Shown here: positions 41,991-50,149 of the stretch, in pieces
Layout: each line of letters begins with the position of its first letter
Position numbering within the stretch: position 1 is the stretch's first letter
NCBI GenBank assembly: GCA_015059545.1
Contig: SVAG01000002.1
Span: forward strand, 8,653 to 72,652
DNA from: Lactobacillales bacterium
GTDB taxonomy: Bacteria; Bacillota_I; Bacilli_A; RF39; UBA660
Direction: 5' to 3'
Length of the DNA: 64,000 nucleotides
Translations under genes and position numbers: made by a program
Notes under the pieces: generated by a model
Told to the model about the DNA's origin: nothing
Databases searched by the model: none
Seen by the model: only the letters and a program-made list of their open reading frames with translations

Positions 41991-43475
41991 ATGTATATAA
42001 ATAATAAGATATTAATCGGAAAAAATGAAAATATAGAAACATATATTTTACCTGAAAAAGCTAATAGACATGGAATTATAACAGGTGCTAGTGGTAGTGG
42101 TAAAACTATTACTTTAAAAGTTATGGCTGAAAGTTTTTCAGATGCATCTGTTCCAGTATTTTTAGTTGATGTTAAAGGTGATTTAGCTGGAATGTGCATT
42201 AAAGGTGAAATGAATGAAAATATAGAAAAAAGAGTTAATAATTTAAATTTAGAAGGATTTGAATTAAAAAATTACCCTACTCATTTTTGGGATGTTTATG
42301 GAGAATCTGGTCATCCTATTAGAACAACTGTATCTAACATAGGTGCTAAATTACTTTCTCGTATGCTTAATTTAACTGATGCTCAAGAAGGTGTTTTAAC
42401 TATTATATTTAAAATAGCTGAAGATGAAAAATTAGAGATTGTTGATTTAAAAGATTTAAGAGCAATGCTTACTTATGTTGGTGATAAAAGAAAAGAATAT
42501 ACTTTAAATTATGGAAATATTACTTTACAAAGTATTGGTGCGATCCAACGTAATTTACTTTCTTTAGAAGAAGAAGGTGGAGATTATTTCTTTGGTAAAC
42601 CTGAATTTAATATAAAAGATTTTATGAAATATAATAGTGCTGATGGTAGAGGTTTTATAAATGTATTACATGCAGCTACTTTATTTAAGAAACCTACACT
42701 GTATGCTACATTCCTACTTTGGTTACTTGATTCACTTTATAATGAGATGCCAGAAGTTGGTGATTTAGATAAACCTAAATTAGTATTCTTTATTGATGAA
42801 GCTCACCTACTTTTCTCTGAAATGCCAGATCATATGATTAAAAATATTATAAGCATTGTTAAATTAATTCGTTCTAAAGGAATTGGTCTTTATTTTATAT
42901 CTCAAAGTCCTAGTGATATACCAGATGAAATATTATCACAACTTGGAAATAGAGTTCAACATGTTTTAAGATATTATACTAAGAGTGATGCTAAAGCTAT
43001 TAAAGCAGCTTGTGATTCATTTAGAGAAAATCCAAACTTTAATACAGAAGACACTATTAAAGAATTAGAAACTGGTGAGGCATTAGTTTCATTCCAAAAT
43101 GAAAATGGTGAACCTTCAATTGTAGAAAAAGTAACTATCTTACCTCCACAAAGTAAAATGGGAACAATTGATGATGAAACAAGAAATAATGTTATAAAAT
43201 CAGATATGTTCTATCAAAAATATGAAAACAAAATTGATAATGAATCTGCTTTTGAAAAAATAAATGATAATAAAATAATGGAAGAAAAAGTTGTTAATGA
43301 AGAAACAAGGGTACTTAAAAAAGATGGTGAAGAAATTAAAACAACAAAGACAACTACTACTAAGAAAAAGAAAAAAAGTAGCATTGAAAAAGCTACTAAT
43401 AAGGTTACTAATTCTGCTTTAAATACACTTGGTAGAAAAATAGGAAATTCAATTTTTAAAGGATTATTTAAGTAA
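41991..43475 (+). CDS. DUF853/YjgR HerA-like ATPase
   Basis: ANRHGIITGASGSGKT, DVKGDL, FIDEAHLLF, IRSKG, QLGNRVQH. Confidence 0.92.
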   Translation: MYINNKILIGKNENIETYILPEKANRHGIITGASGSGKTITLKVMAESFSDASVPVFLVDVKGDLAGMCIKGEMNENIEKRVNNLNLEGFELKNYPTHFWDVYGESGHPIRTTVSNIGAKLLSRMLNLTDAQEGVLTIIFKIAEDEKLEIVDLKDLRAMLTYVGDKRKEYTLNYGNITLQSIGAIQRNLLSLEEEGGDYFFGKPEFNIKDFMKYNSADGRGFINVLHAATLFKKPTLYATFLLWLLDSLYNEMPEVGDLDKPKLVFFIDEAHLLFSEMPDHMIKNIISIVKLIRSKGIGLYFISQSPSDIPDEILSQLGNRVQHVLRYYTKSDAKAIKAACDSFRENPNFNTEDTIKELETGEALVSFQNENGEPSIVEKVTILPPQSKMGTIDDETRNNVIKSDMFYQKYENKIDNESAFEKINDNKIMEEKVVNEETRVLKKDGEEIKTTKTTTTKKKKKSSIEKATNKVTNSALNTLGRKIGNSIFKGLFK

Positions 43476-44348
43476 TCCTTTTATTTTATCTAATAATAAT
43501 TCTTTTACTATATTCTCTTCTATTATATTTATAGAAAATGTTTTATTTCCTATATAATTTATAGATGCTCCTAAATGATAAAATAAATTTTCATCTAATA
43601 TAATATATCTATCATGGAATGTATTATCATATATTATTTTTAAATTATCATATTGTTTATTATATTTTTCTATATCTATTTCTTTTATTAAGTTATTTTT
43701 TCTTGTTATTAATATTACTTTTCTTTTTACATTTGAAATTATATCTAATAATTTTTTATCCGCATATGAATCTATAATTATAATATTTTCTTTACTTTCA
43801 TTTAATATATCTATTATCTTAGAATAAGCATCATATATTTGTCCATTAAAATATATTTCATTTTTTAATTTTCTCTCTTCTAGTTTATCAAATGATTCTT
43901 GTAATAATTTTATATCATTATCATGTTCTAATACTAATCTATTAATATACTGTTGTTCTATTAGATTATTTGATATGTATTTTCTCATTATCACAAATGC
44001 GTCCATTATTCTTATGCTTACTTCTTCAGCAATTGAAGTTCTAAGTACAGATGATAACATAGCTACACCTTGTTCTGTAAATACATATGGTAAATATTTA
44101 CTGTAATGACCTTGTTCTAATTCTAAGGTCCCAAATTGGGACCTTAGAATGTTATCATATTCTTCTTTAGTTAATTTAAATGCAAATCTTTCTGGAAATC
44201 GTTTAATGTGCCTTTTTACAGCTTGATTAATTGTTTTTGTACCATTTTTACATCCATATAATTTAGCTAAATCACTATCTAACATTACTTGTTTTCCTCT
44301 TATTTCATATATCATATTTTCTATTTTTTCTTCTACTATTTGATTCAT
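43464..44348 (-). CDS. ORF6N/KilA-N DNA-binding protein with C-terminal PLD-like (HDR) domain
   Basis: IYEIRGKQVMLDSDLAKLYG, LPYVFTEQGVAMLS, FHDRYIILD..YHLGAS. Confidence 0.88.
   Translation of the reverse strand: MNQIVEEKIENMIYEIRGKQVMLDSDLAKLYGCKNGTKTINQAVKRHIKRFPERFAFKLTKEEYDNILRSQFGTLELEQGHYSKYLPYVFTEQGVAMLSSVLRTSIAEEVSIRIMDAFVIMRKYISNNLIEQQYINRLVLEHDNDIKLLQESFDKLEERKLKNEIYFNGQIYDAYSKIIDILNESKENIIIIDSYADKKLLDIISNVKRKVILITRKNNLIKEIDIEKYNKQYDNLKIIYDNTFHDRYIILDENLFYHLGASINYIGNKTFSINIIEENIVKELLLDKIKGLLK
44120..44150. repeat. 31-bp intragenic palindrome
   Basis: ATTCTAAGGTCCCAA-A-TTGGGACCTTAGAAT (perfect 15-bp arms). Confidence 0.97.
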
Positions 44349-44443
44349 TTAACTCTCCTTTATAAATTAATAATATATCTTCTAATATTAATTTACTCTA
44401 TATCTTTTATAAATCCTTTTAAATAACAAAAAAAAGACTAAAA

Positions 44444-44764
44444 CTAGTCTTTTTTTATAACATTTTCTAAAAATATTTTTTCATTAAATGAACCTCTTTT
44501 TTTTGATTTAGTTTTAGCTACTTCTATTACTTTATCAAGTGATTCACCTTCTAGGGTTGCTAATGAAGAAATGACTTCTAACATATCTGCTAATTCTTCT
44601 ATTCGATCATTTCCTTTTGAATTTAATACTTCATTATATTCTTCATATAATTTTTTTTCTAATTCTTTTTTATATTCTTCATCTGTTAATATTCTTGTTA
44701 TTGGTTCTTCTCCATTATTTTTAATTATTTCTGGTATTTTATCTCTTACTAATTTTTGATACAT
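44444..44764 (-). CDS. All-alpha NTP pyrophosphohydrolase (MazG/PRA-PH-like)
   Basis: KLVRDKIPEII, EEYNEV, EELADMLEV, KRGSF. Confidence 0.88.
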   Translation of the reverse strand: MYQKLVRDKIPEIIKNNGEEPITRILTDEEYKKELEKKLYEEYNEVLNSKGNDRIEELADMLEVISSLATLEGESLDKVIEVAKTKSKKRGSFNEKIFLENVIKKD

Positions 44765-44796
44765 ATTATTTTAATCCTTTCATTATCATAATCAAT

Positions 44797-45978
44797 TTAT
44801 CTCATCTTCATTATTTTTTTATGTATATTTCCAAATGTATCTTCTTTATTCTTTTCATACATTTTTATTTTTTCATTAATATATACTTCTACTAAAGGTG
44901 ACGAAATATCTAATAATTCTACATTTCCCTTTTCTTTATTAATTACGATTGGTGAATCAACTCTTATATTCCAACCTCTTTTTAAATATTCATAATAGTC
45001 TCCAATACTTAACAAATTACAAGTAGAAATTGTTTTATCTATACAAGTTTCTACTTTAGCAAAACCACAACATCTCATTAAAATTTCACTAAAATCATTA
45101 TTACATATTTCAATAATCTTATTTAATTCATCGTTTGGATTTAAAGTATATTTTTGAAGTTTTTCAAAAAAATCATAAAATGAAGCTTCTGCACTTAATA
45201 CTCCACATATAAATTTAATAACTTTTGGGTCATATGTAACTAATTCATTATCATAAATAGTTTTCATTTTAAGTCTTCCAATATATTCATCATAATCAAA
45301 TTTGTTAACGCATTCTTCATTTTTTATTTTTAACTTTTTATTTATATAATATGAAGTATCAGTTATATTGTAATTATTATCAAAAGACCATTTTACTCTA
45401 TCAAATGCATATGAAAGATTTGTCTCATTATGTCCATATCCAGTATTATATAAATCTCCTAATGGAGTAATATACCATGCATTTGGCAAATAACGCTTAT
45501 CTAATTCATTATCTAAAGAATAAATAATCTTTACACGTTTTATTTCTTTTAATGCCTGTGATATTTGAATACATATATTATTCCATTTTTCTTTTTGTAA
45601 TGGGAAACATGGTATTAAAATTTTTAATATTTTTTGATATTCACTCAATAAACAATTTATATCATGTTCAGATAATTCTAATGATTGTTCATAATATTTT
45701 AAACTTCCTAATTCCTCATAAATAATTTTTTCATATTCCGAATATTTATCATAGCTAAAATCAGAATTTAACATCTTATTTAATTCTTCAAATCTTTCTA
45801 ATGATAAGTTTTTTATAATAAAATTTATATTTTTTATTTCTTCAAATATATTTCTATATTTTATAAAAAAATCAATTGATAATTTTTTATATAATAATGG
45901 TGGATCTAATAATTTATTATTTTTACTTAAAATATAAAATTCTTGAGGATTTTCTAATTCTTTATGATATTTAATCAT
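44797..45978 (-). CDS. Hypothetical protein
   Basis: 393-aa ORF; AWYITPLGDLY..GH motif of unknown role. Confidence 0.7.
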   Translation of the reverse strand: MIKYHKELENPQEFYILSKNNKLLDPPLLYKKLSIDFFIKYRNIFEEIKNINFIIKNLSLERFEELNKMLNSDFSYDKYSEYEKIIYEELGSLKYYEQSLELSEHDINCLLSEYQKILKILIPCFPLQKEKWNNICIQISQALKEIKRVKIIYSLDNELDKRYLPNAWYITPLGDLYNTGYGHNETNLSYAFDRVKWSFDNNYNITDTSYYINKKLKIKNEECVNKFDYDEYIGRLKMKTIYDNELVTYDPKVIKFICGVLSAEASFYDFFEKLQKYTLNPNDELNKIIEICNNDFSEILMRCCGFAKVETCIDKTISTCNLLSIGDYYEYLKRGWNIRVDSPIVINKEKGNVELLDISSPLVEVYINEKIKMYEKNKEDTFGNIHKKIMKMR

Positions 45979-46051
45979 ACTATCACACTTTCATATAAAA
46001 TATATTTTTTATACTATCATATAAATATACAAATGTAAATAAAAGTAGATA

Positions 46052-46948
46052 TCAATTATCTACTTTTATATCACCTAAATCATTTTTAATTTCTAAAGTC
46101 ACATCTGCATCTCTATAATTATTATTTATTTTTTCTTTTCCTAAATCTGTTTCTACATCTATATATACATTTTCTATATTATCTATTTCAATATCTCCTA
46201 AATCACTTTTAATTTTTGAATCTTTAGTTAATACTACATTATCTAGTTCTATATCTCCACAATCATTACTAATATTCAAATAACTATCAATATTTTTTAT
46301 TTCAATATCTCCAAGATTATTTTCAGCAGTTATTTCATTAACTTCTTTAATTTTTATATCTCCTGCAGATACTTCTATATTTGCAGTATTAGCTTTAGTT
46401 ATATTTACATTTCCTAAATCATTTTTTACTTTTATATTATTTGCATCTAATACTTTTATATCACCAAAATTTTCTTCTATTTTTATATTAGCATTCGTAA
46501 ATTCTTCTATTTCTATATTACCAAAATTATTTTCTATATTAATTTTATTTGAATAATTTTTTGGTAAATAAATTTCTACTTTTGATATAAGTGTATTAAT
46601 ACAGAAAAATTTACATTTTTTTGCTTTTACATTTATATCTAATATACCATTACTATTATTAATATTACTATTTTTTTCTTCATTATATATTAATACTTTT
46701 ATTTGTTCTTCTCCACTATTTTTTACATAAATATTACCTGCTTCTACATTAATATTTATTTCATTCATATTATTATCATATATTTCTTCTATTTCTAATT
46801 TTTCACTTACACCTTTATATGTTTTAAACATTTTAAAATTAATTGTATTATTCATTAATAAAATCATAACAGTTATAACAGAAATTACTATGATAGATAA
46901 TAAAATAATTAAAAATATTGTTAATGTTTTATTTTTCATTTTCATCAC
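46052..46948 (-). CDS. DUF4097 (toast-rack beta-repeat) membrane-anchored protein
   Basis: N-terminal TM and repeated xNxxGDIxI units; true start probably 46939 or 46945. Confidence 0.85.
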   Translation of the reverse strand: MMKMKNKTLTIFLIILLSIIVISVITVMILLMNNTINFKMFKTYKGVSEKLEIEEIYDNNMNEININVEAGNIYVKNSGEEQIKVLIYNEEKNSNINNSNGILDINVKAKKCKFFCINTLISKVEIYLPKNYSNKINIENNFGNIEIEEFTNANIKIEENFGDIKVLDANNIKVKNDLGNVNITKANTANIEVSAGDIKIKEVNEITAENNLGDIEIKNIDSYLNISNDCGDIELDNVVLTKDSKIKSDLGDIEIDNIENVYIDVETDLGKEKINNNYRDADVTLEIKNDLGDIKVDN

Positions 46949-47567
46949 CTCTTAATGAAATTATTAATTTAATTATTTGCATTATTAATGCATATACTAT
47001 CCATATTAACCATGTGATATGCCATGCCATTGTTATAAAGCTTATAAATAAATATATTATTAATGTAATTAATGATAACACATTATCTATTTGTTTTATA
47101 AGCTTCTTTTCTTTTTTTTCTTTTTCTGTTTTTTCTTCTTTATAAACTATACAAGTATATACTATAAAGAATGTTGCTACTCCAGAAATAAGTAAGAATC
47201 CTGCAGCAGCTATAACTGGATTTATCATAAGCACTGGTACTGAAATCATAATCCAAGTAATTGCAATAAAATAACATAATACTCCTATTCCTATTCCTTT
47301 TGCTCTTTTTTTAGCAATTTCTTCTTTTTTTGAAGATAATTTTTCTTCTTTTATTTCTTCTTTTTTTCCTGTAAGTAATTCATCAGCTGTTATTCCATAT
47401 AACTCACATAATGGAGCTATTTTATCAAAGTCTGGAGTACTTTGATCTGTTTCCCATTTAGAAATAGTTTGCCTTGATACATTTAATTTAAATGCTACTT
47501 CTTCTTGAGATAAATGTTCTTTTTTTCTTAAATTTAATAATCTTTCTCCTAAATTCATTCTTTCCAC
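46929..47567 (-). CDS. XRE HTH regulator with C-terminal TM domain
   Basis: LSQEEVA..VSRQTISKWE...PD plus 4 TM segments. Confidence 0.9.
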   Translation of the reverse strand: MERMNLGERLLNLRKKEHLSQEEVAFKLNVSRQTISKWETDQSTPDFDKIAPLCELYGITADELLTGKKEEIKEEKLSSKKEEIAKKRAKGIGIGVLCYFIAITWIMISVPVLMINPVIAAAGFLLISGVATFFIVYTCIVYKEEKTEKEKKEKKLIKQIDNVLSLITLIIYLFISFITMAWHITWLIWIVYALIMQIIKLIISLRGDENEK

Positions 47568-47686
47568 CTCACACCAAAATTATATTATTTTTATCGGTTG
47601 CACTCTACCAATTTCACTTTGAAATTTGTCAACTAAACTTAACATTTACTAAATTATAACACAAAAAACATTATTTTAATAATGTT

Positions 47687-48070
47687 TTAATTAAAAGCAA
47701 GTTCTACATCTAATTCTTCATCTTGATATGCAATATATAAAAATATAACTCCACTTAATGCAATTAACAAAGATCCTATTAATGATAATGTCACTAATTT
47801 TTTCTTTTTTAATGAATCATTTTCTTTTAAATTTTTGTAATCATCTAATGAATCTTTTACAAAGTATAAATATACAATTATCAAAATAGAAAATATAAAT
47901 ATCATTATTTTTCTATATTTTTCTTTACTTATATTATCATTAAATAAATAATATTTTTCTTCTAAAGAATTAGAATAAAAACTAAGTGCTATTATTCCAA
48001 TATATATAATCCAAATAAAATCTTCAATTTTAATTTGTTCTAATTTTCTATTTAATTCATTATAATTCAT
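47687..48070 (-). CDS. 3-TM membrane protein
   Basis: Three hydrophobic segments. Confidence 0.7.
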   Translation of the reverse strand: MNYNELNRKLEQIKIEDFIWIIYIGIIALSFYSNSLEEKYYLFNDNISKEKYRKIMIFIFSILIIVYLYFVKDSLDDYKNLKENDSLKKKKLVTLSLIGSLLIALSGVIFLYIAYQDEELDVELAFN

Positions 48071-48126
48071 ATTAAATTTTATGAATTATATTATAATAAA
48101 TACTAAAAAAGTAAGCATTAAGCTTA

Positions 48127-49188
48127 CTAATTTTCTTGACATTTAATTGTTTCTGTTTTTTTACATACATTACCACTTTTTGTATATCCGCTTGGACATC
48201 CTTTTGTAGTTACTTTCTTAACTGTTTTAACACACCAACTATGACCACTACTATCTTTATAATCAACTTCAGCTGCTTCCCAAGTATCACATTGTCTTAT
48301 ACTTGCATCTTCTTTTGTAGCTAAATTAATACAATATGTTCCTGATCCATACCAAGTATTATATGATATTGATCCACTTGGACAAGATGTTTTAGAAATC
48401 ATATTTGTTGTAACTTCCTTAGTACATTTACTTCCATCACCAACAGGTGTACAATCTTTTGGACAAGTATATGGTTCTTTCCATGTAGCTTTAATAACCA
48501 TATCTGTTGTAATTTTTGTTTCTTTAGTTATTTCATTTCCATCTTTATCAACCCATCCAGCAAATTTAAATCCTTCTTTTGTTGGATTCATTGGTAATAA
48601 AATTATTTTACCATTTTCAATTATTATACTTCCAATTTTATTTCCACCATCTGTATCAAATTTAATTTCTAATGTTTTTGCTTTTTCACTTATCCAGAAT
48701 GCTTTTAATGTTGTATCTTCATCAAATGTAATATCTTCTGTTATAAGGTATCCATCTTCATTTACCCAACCTACAAATATATATCCTTCTTTTGTTGGTT
48801 CTACAGGCATTAAAATAACTGTTCCTTTTTCTATTATGATATCTTCGATTTTATTTCCACCATCTGTATCATATGTAATTTTTGAAGTTTCAACATCATT
48901 ACTAATCCATTTAGCTTTAAATGTTGTATCTTCTGTTATTTTTGTTCCTGTTGTTACAACTTTTCCTTTTTTATTTGTCCATCCAACAAATTTATATCCT
49001 TCTTTTTTAGGTTCATCTGGTAATTTTGTTATTTTTTTATCTTTTATTTCTATATTTTCAACTTCTGAACCACCGTCTGTATCAAGTTTAATAATGTATG
49101 TTTCTTGTCTATTAAGTAACAAGAATATTATAATACCTAAAAGTATTAATATTGTGATTACAATTAAAGCAATCCACTTTTTCTTCAT
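48127..49188 (-). CDS. Surface protein with three InlB B-repeats and Cys-rich C-terminal domain
   Basis: 3x DTDGG...P.KEGY.F.GW...A.W; then CPKDC...CPSGYTKSGNVC. Confidence 0.88.
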   Translation of the reverse strand: MKKKWIALIVITILILLGIIIFLLLNRQETYIIKLDTDGGSEVENIEIKDKKITKLPDEPKKEGYKFVGWTNKKGKVVTTGTKITEDTTFKAKWISNDVETSKITYDTDGGNKIEDIIIEKGTVILMPVEPTKEGYIFVGWVNEDGYLITEDITFDEDTTLKAFWISEKAKTLEIKFDTDGGNKIGSIIIENGKIILLPMNPTKEGFKFAGWVDKDGNEITKETKITTDMVIKATWKEPYTCPKDCTPVGDGSKCTKEVTTNMISKTSCPSGSISYNTWYGSGTYCINLATKEDASIRQCDTWEAAEVDYKDSSGHSWCVKTVKKVTTKGCPSGYTKSGNVCKKTETIKCQEN

Positions 49189-49247
49189 AAATAGTATCCT
49201 CCTTTTACTTATTTTACTATAACAATATTAAAAATTCAATAAGTAAA

Positions 49248-50102
49248 TTATTTTTGCCTTAAATGTTCAAGTATATTTTCTAGCAATTTTTTATCTTCTA
49301 TTTTATTTATACTAAAACATTTCTTTCCTAAATCTTTAAAGGAGGCTCCTGAATGATATAATGTACTTCTATCTATTATAATAAATCTATCATGAAAATT
49401 ATTATTTATTTTTATATTTAAATTATTATATTGTTCTTTATATTTTTCTATATCTTTATTATTGTATTTATTTGTTATTATTGTTACTTCTTTATCTAAA
49501 AAACTTATTATATCTAATATCTGTTTATCAATATAGTTATCTATTATTATAATTTCTTCTTCTGCTTCTTTTAATATATCAACTAATAATGAATATGCAT
49601 CATATATTTGTCCTTCAAAAAATATATGACTTTGTTTTTCTTTTTTATCCAACGCTTCAAATAATTTATCTATCTTATTATCATGTTCTATATATTTAGT
49701 TTCTAAATTAGATATTCTTATTTCATAATTATTTACATATTTTTTTAAATTAACAAAAGCTTCTACAATTCTTAAACTAGTTTTTATAGCTATTTCACTT
49801 TTTAAAATTCCAGCTAACATCGTTACTCCATATTCAGTAAATACATAAGGTAAATATTTACGATGTTGTCCTCTGCCATTTTTTAAGGTGAAATTTTTGC
49901 ACCTTAAAAAATTATATTCTTCATTTGTTAATTGAAAACAATATTCTAATGGAAATCTCTTAATATTGTTTTTTACATTTCTATTCAAATCTTTGGTTGA
50001 ATAATTAAATAATTTAGCTAAATCACTATCTAACATTACTTGTTTTCCTCTTATTTCATATATTAAATTTTCTATTTTTTCTTTTTCCATGATATCATTC
50101 AT
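49248..50102 (-). CDS. ORF6N/KilA-N DNA-binding protein with PLD-like domain, paralogue 2
   Basis: IYEIRGKQVMLDSDLAKLF, LPYVFTEYGV, FHDRFIIID..YHSGAS. Start at 50102 behind GAGGTG. Confidence 0.88.
   Translation of the reverse strand: MNDIMEKEKIENLIYEIRGKQVMLDSDLAKLFNYSTKDLNRNVKNNIKRFPLEYCFQLTNEEYNFLRCKNFTLKNGRGQHRKYLPYVFTEYGVTMLAGILKSEIAIKTSLRIVEAFVNLKKYVNNYEIRISNLETKYIEHDNKIDKLFEALDKKEKQSHIFFEGQIYDAYSLLVDILKEAEEEIIIIDNYIDKQILDIISFLDKEVTIITNKYNNKDIEKYKEQYNNLNIKINNNFHDRFIIIDRSTLYHSGASFKDLGKKCFSINKIEDKKLLENILEHLRQK
49878..49912. repeat. 35-bp intragenic palindrome
   Basis: ATTTTTTAAGGTG-aaatttttg-CACCTTAAAAAAT (13-bp perfect arms, centre partly paired). Confidence 0.95.
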
Positions 50103-50149
50103 AAAATCACCTCTAAAACTAATATACTCTATCAATTTTAAGAATCCTT

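Follow-up and report, generated by a model that had tools for sequence, protein, structure and literature searches.

A palindromic element maintained as nucleic acid within the coding sequence of ORF6N and related KilA-N-type domains

Two paralogous ORF6N genes, W1 and W2, lie in a 64,000-nt stretch of the genome of a Lactobacillales bacterium (assembly GCA_015059545.1, contig SVAG01000002.1; the whole stretch is hereafter called the window), and each contains a DNA palindrome at the same site within the region encoding its N-terminal domain (Table 1). Here we establish that these palindromes belong to a selected nucleic-acid element that is tied to one superfamily, that of the KilA-N-type domains, and that is neither a protein artefact nor a diversifier of the protein. 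The element itself, its independence of the reading frame, the covariation of its arms, its conservation, its restriction to the genes of this superfamily and their flanks, and the PLD fold at the C-terminus of W1 are all shown here. As to its role, we give a probability of roughly 35% to the reading, drawn from sequence comparison, that the palindromes are selected hairpin-capable DNA sites and putative cognate cis elements of KilA-N-type DNA-binding domains, each of which would serve as a self-contained operator or anchor.

Palindromes of the window

Palindrome 1 (ATTCTAAGGTCCCAAATTGGGACCTTAGAAT) consists of two 15-nt arms with 100% complementarity around a single central base, in a register that matches the one in homologues. 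Palindrome 2 (ATTTTTTAAGGTGAAATTTTTGCACCTTAAAAAAT) has perfect arms of 13 nt and a 9-nt spacer or, in an alternative pairing, 16-nt arms with one mismatch and a 3-nt centre. An earlier note on this DNA, made from the letters alone, had reported both palindromes with their encoded peptides and had called the two genes ORF6N paralogues; coordinates, letters and translations were all confirmed, as was the family assignment (Pfam PF10543; W1, E = 1.4e-31, 109.1 bits; W2, E = 6.9e-31, 106.8 bits; gathering cut-off 27.8). W1 and W2 share 52% protein identity and are the sole two copies in the 1.19-Mb genome. The same note had centred the palindromes on the middle base of a codon; the coordinates place the centre on the first base instead, in codons F72 of W1 and N70 of W2, which are homologous and on the gene strand follow Q71 and K69, respectively. 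A whole-genome scan (1,185,710 nt) for TAAGGT-N11-ACCTTA, which had also been proposed there, found this pattern in these two genes only.

Palindrome 1 has the highest G+C content among the perfect palindromes of the genome with arms of at least 15 nt, the genome G+C content being 24%. Folding energies of palindromes 1 and 2 were -13.9 and -10.5 kcal/mol as single-stranded DNA (z versus shuffles -7.6 and -4.1) and -21.6 and -12.5 kcal/mol as RNA (z -6.6 and -3.5). A chance origin was rejected on the grounds of the G+C rank, these z-scores and the symmetry found at the same site in nearly all homologues.

Several known kinds of site were also considered and rejected. On both strands, T-rich sequence leads into the window stems and A-rich sequence comes after them, without the T-run of an intrinsic terminator, and a terminator scan flagged only some copies, in other loci. 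Reading the palindromes as internal promoters was rejected on sequence, and in an informal comparison with consensus sequences the LexA, CodY and cre boxes did not fit in spacing or arm order.

Pairing in ORF6N homologues

The ORF6N family is large (at least 7,999 proteins scored), and homologue DNA was collected from 80 loci of species genomes, 80 of metagenomes and 2 of viral contigs, the last from 23 candidate stretches of which 2 encode a relative; five phage records also matched, all of them unannotated. A profile of the N-terminal domain yielded 234 domain matches in 173 of 174 sources. Among the first 76 motif-bearing homologues, the longest perfect hairpin within a 45-nt segment was centred on the identical base in 75 and had arms of 11-20 nt in 62.

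Pairing was scored as the number of Watson-Crick pairs among the 12 at distances 2-13 from the centre, in 183 distinct near-full-length ORF6N sites, drawn from about 170 loci. Of these sites, 165 had 10 or more pairs at the fixed base and 101 had all 12, compared with a mean of 5.52 pairs (standard deviation 1.87) and 1.3% reaching 10 when synonymous codons were resampled with family usage, and with 2.6-3.9 of 12 pairs in a shifted-centre control. For 148 distinct 37-nt sites, 95.1% of cells were paired against 75.9% after shuffling (0 of 500 shuffles reached the observed value), while at most 54% were paired when the partners were slid by 1-3 columns. Double compensatory changes were found in 11 of 13 stem pairs (421 cells), and several stem pairs use three or four Watson-Crick types. 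The claim of the earlier note that symmetry is maintained at the level of the nucleic acid, beyond what protein conservation could account for, is thus borne out by the codon-resampled null, the covariation and the shifted frames described below; on these grounds and on that of the control windows, protein-level symmetry combined with codon bias was rejected as the cause.

Distant plasmid-borne ORF6N genes of Legionella, Treponema, Butyrivibrio and Bacteroides keep the site. The Treponema homologue sits between hsdM and hsdS of a type I restriction-modification operon, and the Butyrivibrio palindrome has a different sequence in an unchanged register.

At every divergence examined, the palindrome has changed less than its flanks: at a flank identity of 0.74 the palindrome identity is 0.85, and at 0.53 it is 0.72. 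These values do not support the suggestion, made in the earlier note, of a hotspot that diversifies the encoded loop. The consensus is ..TTGAGGT-NNC-AA-N-TT-GNN-ACCTCAA.., an odd palindrome of about 27-41 bp, in which G-7, T-6, A-2, T+2, A+6 and C+7 are each kept in 146-148 of the 148 sites. Position -7 is G in 146 of them (AGG, AAG or CGG, not AGA or AAA) and position +2 is T in 147; the invariant bases therefore force synonymous choices and bring rare codons into A+T-rich genomes. Such invariance beyond pairing suggests sequence-specific recognition.

Reading frames and encoded peptides

All 16 sites that failed at the usual centre have a palindrome nearby; 15 of them have 10-12 of 12 pairs at a shift of 1-6 nt, and most of the shifted sites are the same type of palindrome read in another frame. 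All three reading frames cross the palindrome, in different subfamilies, and give mutually unrelated peptides, namely LRSQxGT (e.g. LRSQIGT), FLVENFDQK or FLVTNCDQK, and ICGPKLGPQ; in a Segatella gene, GGTCGCAAATTGCGACC is read as LVANCDR. Since one palindrome yields unrelated peptides, it is the nucleotide element that is conserved, and the peptide is its by-product. The amino-acid pairs S..G, F..E, S..A and S..L change together with the stem because base pairing joins codon positions offset by one base, through the genetic code. Covariation of loop residues (S..G versus F..E) can therefore echo base pairing and not protein contacts, which is a warning for its use.

The earlier note had favoured an intragenic operator with self-encoded specificity, i.e. 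a protein that recognises the very palindrome encoding its own recognition loop, which would make the site change in step with the specificity. In the KilA-N-type literature ORF6N is predicted to bind DNA, and the S..G, F..E and S..A pairs do change with the stem. The latter follows from base pairing and the genetic code, and the unrelated peptides in three frames contradict the idea. In an AlphaFold2 model of W1 (mean predicted local distance difference test score, pLDDT, 80), the stretch encoded by the left arm (residues 61-70) is the end of a helix, while that encoded by the right arm (residues 71-79, pLDDT below 50) is a low-confidence loop. Moreover, copies that flank the genes are not cognate to the adjacent gene, with whose palindrome they share 8.48 of 12 arm bases, compared with 7.75 of 12 for other loci. 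We thus regard self-encoded specificity as very improbable.

Side observations concern genes with more than one palindrome. L013 (at 3180 and 3548) and P0005-P0008 with their relatives (about 420 aa) have tandem ORF6N domains with one palindrome each, in different frames, and one ORF6N gene of a Saccharibacteria bin (L073, about 1700-1800) holds three in-frame tandem palindrome modules 33 nt apart.

Sister families

RhuM (Pfam) genes have an analogous palindrome, e.g. AACTGTCGCAAAATTTGCGACAGTT, at a fixed distance before the SVGYR motif, in 24 of 25 open reading frames (ORFs); of 284 control windows from these genes, 1 has such a palindrome. In the WYFS subfamily of Bro-N, it lies at about codon 50 in 11 of 14 genes, compared with 0 of 81 controls. 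The dinD gene of E. coli K-12 has TGACCATTTCGAGGAGATCCTCGATATGGTCA at the equivalent loop, with 11 of 12 pairs where the next best site of the gene has 8 of 12, and compared with two DinD-like genes it shows compensating changes in the inner arms. The C-terminal parts differ among the palindrome-bearing RhuM, Bro-N, KilA-N and DinD genes. Between the profiles of ORF6N and PF13310-type RhuM, hhalign gave a probability of 2.4%, only a helix-turn-helix-like stretch being aligned.

In the genome of the window, eight superfamily genes (by Pfam, two ORF6N, three Bro-N, one KilA-N and two RhuM) make up 0.59% of the DNA; of the 61 perfect palindromes with three or more G+C per arm, 6 lie in these genes, as do 4 of the 11 with four or more. 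Six of these genes, outside the window, have a palindrome in the equivalent loop (C10, about 45.3-47.3 kb; C6, about 118.5 and 241.9 kb; C3, about 94.2 and 122.9 kb). The RhuM gene on C10 is apparently split, with its match in two pieces and a stop codon, and directly precedes the KilA-N gene.

Copies outside the domain

We searched 173 loci (946,525 nt) for GT-N3-A-N3-T-N3-AC sites in which 10 or more of the 12 pairs are present. The search yielded 203 copies within ORF6N domains and 72 elsewhere, the latter in 40 of the 173 loci, whereas the reversed-sequence control gave 3. Most of the outside copies (59 of 72) lie within 300 nt of an ORF6N open frame, and in four other genomes searched whole the perfect palindromes cluster in few loci. 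Pair counts are bimodal, intermediates (7-9 of 12) being few and at background level. Two loci, L034 and L046, have six different palindromes each in about 400 non-coding bases after the stop codon. L063 has three copies before the start, with a promoter-like site upstream of them, and a further copy, with hybrid arms, behind the stop. In L116 the arrays form part of small ORFs that open with an ATG behind a GAAGGAG ribosome-binding site. The locus also has a repeated G+C-rich block (1500-1660 and 2040-2340); behind every copy of it come GAAGGAG, ATG and a small ORF that consists of two or four palindrome modules. These ORFs lie upstream of an ORF6N gene, and an XRE-like small gene lies between the two copies of the block.

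Type III toxin-antitoxin systems (ToxIN-like) have tandem, near-identical RNA repeats beside the toxin gene. This explanation of the arrays was rejected, as their members are mutually different and their spacers unequal.

DNA or RNA

Among the non-Watson-Crick cells at distances 2-13, small counts of 23 G:T and 39 A:C were found, with no excess of G:U on the sense strand. G:U makes up about 1.7% of cells in the 148 sites, a low share for a helix of RNA. The pair beside the centre (distance 1) holds in 106 of 167 only, which leaves an effective loop of 3 nt, and the symmetry extends to within 2 nt of the centre. From the mismatch counts and the reach of the symmetry we infer that the element acts as DNA and not as sense-strand RNA.

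A hairpin in the mRNA could instead exert post-transcriptional control, as an RNase III site or as a ribosome pause that limits a toxic product, with the flanking copies acting in untranslated regions. The stability of the RNA stems, the 3-nt effective loop, the L116 arrays read as small ORFs behind a ribosome-binding site and the promoter-like site upstream of the L063 leader copies all agree with such a role; in addition, single-gene toxin-like cassettes need tight control, and RhuM-like domains have been proposed as toxins of restriction-modification loci (PMC3710099, in its available part). The G:T and A:C counts and the scarcity of G:U argue against it, as do the copies on both sides of the genes. 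Furthermore, Rfam 15 gave no family match at gathering score in four array loci or in L116, a library in which such a short hairpin may not be covered. Overall, we consider control by an mRNA hairpin unlikely.

Signs of recombination and exchange

Copies with arms of different common types occur in L063 (3892), L026 (4082 and 4215) and L028 (2807). In L038 and L027, the flanks are 97-98% identical and the palindromes differ only by the central triplet, GAT versus ATC, which amounts to an exact loop inversion. At the palindrome itself no recombination breakpoint was detected: all comparisons together gave two discordant pairs, and the one examined breaks about 60 nt upstream. Logan contigs of four sequencing runs stop close to the window palindromes in some runs, while in others they cross them unchanged (X9, 44098-44269; X7, 49590-50044); these contigs are fragmentary, with joints that are short-sided at a low likeness threshold, and they carry no weight for or against rearrangement.

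The palindrome might be a site of recombination, nicking or hairpin processing by the PLD-fold domain or another enzyme, recognised in folded form as are attC and the repetitive extragenic palindromes (REPs), with the arrays as products or partners. The PLD fold of W1 is clear (Z of 12.8 to NucT, 12.1 to SauUSI and 9.2 to BfiI) and includes a near-invariant motif; structure is conserved and sequence variable, as in attC, and the central triplets in both orientations, the three 33-nt in-frame tandem modules of L073 and, as weak hints, the hybrid-armed copies and the one loop inversion point the same way. This is countered by the RhuM, Bro-N, KilA-N and DinD carriers, which have other C-terminal parts, so that the PLD domain cannot be the general partner of the palindrome. 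It is also countered by the lack of a breakpoint at the palindrome, by the background level of intermediate pair counts (7-9 of 12) and by the window contigs, in which, fragmentary as they were, no rearrangement was supported. A processing site is therefore a doubtful explanation, less probable than control at the mRNA level.

As a separate observation, two metagenomic loci (L152 and L127) carry near-identical ORF6N genes that differ in a mosaic patch. The patch, about 85 nt long and within the helix-turn-helix-like region, is of CKNGTK type in one gene and E-TK type in the other and ends about 60 nt before the palindrome. It looks like patchwise exchange between subtypes.

The palindrome might equally perpetuate itself without any function, intrastrand template switching copying changes from arm to arm faster than point mutation breaks the symmetry. 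Quasipalindromes of E. coli are mutational hotspots corrected by template switching (PMC7202029, in its available part). The right arm encodes a disordered loop in which any frame is tolerated, G:T and A:C intermediates are about equally common, and the non-coding copies stay symmetric too. A neutral process of this kind does not account for the near-universal retention of the palindrome down to about 50% flank identity and across several phyla, for its slower change compared with the flanks, or for particular bases that are invariant beyond mere pairing. Nor does it account for its presence in the same loop of families with no detectable protein similarity (hhalign probability 2.4%) or for extra copies that gather only beside these genes, and it leaves unexplained why 4 of the 11 most G+C-rich palindromes of the genome lie in 0.59% of its DNA. 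We judge it about as improbable as the processing site.

The two genes, their proteins and surroundings

Table 1. Positions of the palindromes, genes and domains in the window
Feature	Positions	Strand	Description
Palindrome 1	44120-44150	.	Perfect 15+1+15; encodes ILRSQFGTLE; centre at base 1 of codon F72
Palindrome 2	49878-49912	.	Encodes FLRCKNFTLKN; centre at base 1 of codon N70; row 2 of alignment A3
Gene W1	43464..44348	-	294 aa; ORF6N residues 12-101, long helices 105-162, PLD-fold domain ~160-294
ORF6N coding region of W1, containing palindrome 1	44046..44315	-	Pfam match to residues 12-101
PLD-fold domain of W1	43467..43871	-	H245-x-R247-x4-D252 ... G260-x-S262-x-N264; from alignment columns and structure matches
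Gene W2	49248..50102	-	284 aa from ATG; paralogue of W1 with the same architecture

The open frame of W2 extends to a TTG at 50135. The PADLOC model of PDC-S05, a candidate defence gene (PDLC04869), matches W1 at residues 3-289 (E = 2.1e-87) and W2 at residues 4-282 (E = 1.3e-98), while the Pfam family RhuM (PF13310) matches neither at E up to 0.1. Likeness to Bacteroidales proteins annotated as RhuM is confined to the C-terminal half of W1 (residues 120-289, 30-33% identity).

The earlier note had supposed a PLD-like domain at the C-terminus, and structure matches support this fold. For W1 residues of about 160-294, Z was 12.8 for NucT (6ehi), 12.1 for SauUSI (7clg), 11.7 for Zucchini (4ggj), 11.6 for Nuc (1bys) and 9.2 for BfiI (2c1l), and Foldseek E-values of the PLD-fold matches ranged from 4e-6 to 3e-5. 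The non-catalytic PLD folds TrmB and FAM83 score level with the PLD nucleases, and the overall layout of W1, with a DNA-binding domain, long helices and a PLD-like domain, resembles the DNA-binding regulators TrmB and TrmBL2. A sequence search of the PDB gave no match at E up to 1. PLD nucleases have the catalytic motif HxK(x)4D(x)6GSxN; in the W1 family, R replaces K and the spacing is off by one, and the family motif (Table 1) is invariant or nearly so in the family alignment.

At their 5' ends (W1, 44255-44335; W2, 50005-50085) the two genes share about 75 nearly identical bases encoding EKIEN.IYEIRGKQVMLDSDLAKL, which could be due to gene conversion between the paralogues or to a second constraint at the nucleotide level. 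W1 and W2 flank about 5 kb of unrelated genes (41991-43475, 44444-44764 and 44797-49188 were examined), whose translations suggest a small MazG-like protein, a protein of 393 aa, a DUF4097-like repeat protein, an XRE-type membrane regulator and an InlB-B-repeat surface protein. A gene for a predicted ATPase (494 aa, likewise by translation only) abuts W1, and the surroundings of the two genes include no restriction-modification operon.

Comparison with known systems

Sites for binding proteins within genes are known from the ori iterons in lambda gene O, parS in B. subtilis spo0J and the PurR operator in purB, a roadblock. All are dyad-symmetric DNA in coding sequence, as is the present element, and in lambda O and spo0J the site lies in the gene of its own binder and is inherited with it, whereas binding is only putative here. 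Those sites are conserved in sequence and confined to one frame and one gene family; in contrast, the present element has an arm-compensated sequence, occurs in three frames, several families and non-coding arrays, and lies inside the region coding for a DNA-binding domain. Dyad symmetry and conserved bases, which characterise operators, are both found in the palindrome, with six positions kept almost without exception.

Integron attC sites share with the element a conserved structure with variable sequence and arrays beside genes. They are recognised as folded single strands, go with the tyrosine recombinase IntI, have an imperfect stem with extrahelical bases and lie between cassettes, unlike the present stems, which are perfect in 101 of 183 sites and intragenic in a conserved domain. 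The Segatella copy adjoins two site-specific integrases and a recombinase-family gene, and copies in Bacteroides finegoldii, Phocaeicola and Sulfuricurvum adjoin further recombinase or integrase genes; most annotated loci seen have no integrase or recombinase neighbour, no systematic integrase search having been made.

Rickettsia palindromic elements are found in frame in coding genes and are translated as a surface segment. As with the present element, palindromic DNA is tolerated and translated within open reading frames. They are 100-150 bp long, lie scattered over unrelated genes of one genus and behave as selfish insertions, whereas the element described here is about 30 bp long, is found across phyla in one homologous loop of a single superfamily and is conserved better than its flanks.

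In the REP/RAYT system, a gene whose product is believed to act on short palindromes has such palindromes in its flanks (PMC8266576, in its available part). REPs are extragenic, number hundreds per genome and are linked to an HUH (Y1) transposase, RAYT (TnpA-REP). The present element differs in its few copies confined to the genes and their immediate flanks, in a core copy that is intragenic and in its proteins, which are of KilA-N type with PLD or other C-terminal domains and not HUH.

A RhuM-domain PDC-S05 gene lowered the plating of phages T7, T5 and T4 in E. coli (bioRxiv 10.1101/2024.09.26.614923, in its available part). The gene tested is of RhuM type and from another habitat, whereas W1 and W2 are of ORF6N type, and the available parts of the PDC-S05 and RhuM literature covered do not mention an internal palindrome. 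No earlier description of the element was found in full-text searches of the literature outside subscription journals.

Discussion

The two palindromes would be local copies of a conserved element, able to form a hairpin or cruciform, that occupies one fixed coding loop of KilA-N-type domains (ORF6N, RhuM-N, one Bro-N subfamily, KilA-N and DinD) in any frame. A two-fold symmetric protein assembly might bind it through the invariant G-T...A-C and A...T positions and the geometry of the stem, which would result in a gene-internal operator, a roadblock or an anchoring site. Such a site would travel with its gene wherever the cassette lands, e.g. inside type I restriction-modification operons, and copies and arrays in the non-coding DNA next to the genes would provide additional sites of this type. 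We infer that the encoded protein may itself recognise the element, with autoregulation as the outcome.

Several observations weigh against a bound operator or anchor. A duplex binder tolerates asymmetry at positions it does not contact, so the perfect covariation needs an additional cause, either a hairpin or copying from arm to arm; template switching may be the way in which the arms stay alike. Because the non-coding copies are unmatched to the palindrome of the adjacent gene, any recognition must rest on the conserved core alone. These copies lie downstream in 39 cases and upstream in 28, which is not the usual placement of operators, and the two window genes have no extra copies in their own genome. 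The ORF6N genes of Haliovirga, Sulfuricurvum and Alistipes have no perfect arm of at least 7 nt at the site, the first two retaining just the five innermost pairs at the usual centre and the Alistipes gene reaching 9 of 12 pairs with the centre shifted by 9 nt. Classic Bro-N genes mostly do without the element (present in 1 of 6). The count of 23 G:T versus 39 A:C cells is small and is shaped by mutation and coding biases as well. Finally, because the sequences share ancestry and were taken as best-scoring matches, their independence is overstated by the shuffles; the size of the pairing effect does not hinge on it.

In a wider and more tentative reading, which we hold to be somewhat unlikely, the KilA-N-type domains were built around an ancient hairpin-forming DNA element that is better conserved than the protein read through it, so that gene and site form one unit and the domain or a PLD-type partner recognises the extruded hairpin or cruciform, satellite arrays included. 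If true, this would amount to promoter-independent self-control for mobile toxin, defence and regulator cassettes or to a new class of structure-specific DNA processing, and an entire superfamily, dinD of E. coli included, would be defined by a nucleic-acid signal concealed in its coding sequence.

A second, frame-independent signal in coding sequence that is kept across phyla and in families with dissimilar proteins is rarely found. Members of the superfamily that carries it are common in phages, defence islands, restriction-modification operons and the SOS regulon. Should the palindrome be the domain's own site, this would explain how single-gene toxin and defence cassettes regulate themselves at any insertion point, and site and protein together would give a handle on PDC-S05/RhuM defence and on DinD. 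If, on the other hand, it is processed as a hairpin, it would point to a new structure-specific transaction of DNA or RNA. The palindrome in dinD of E. coli K-12 makes the question accessible to standard genetics.

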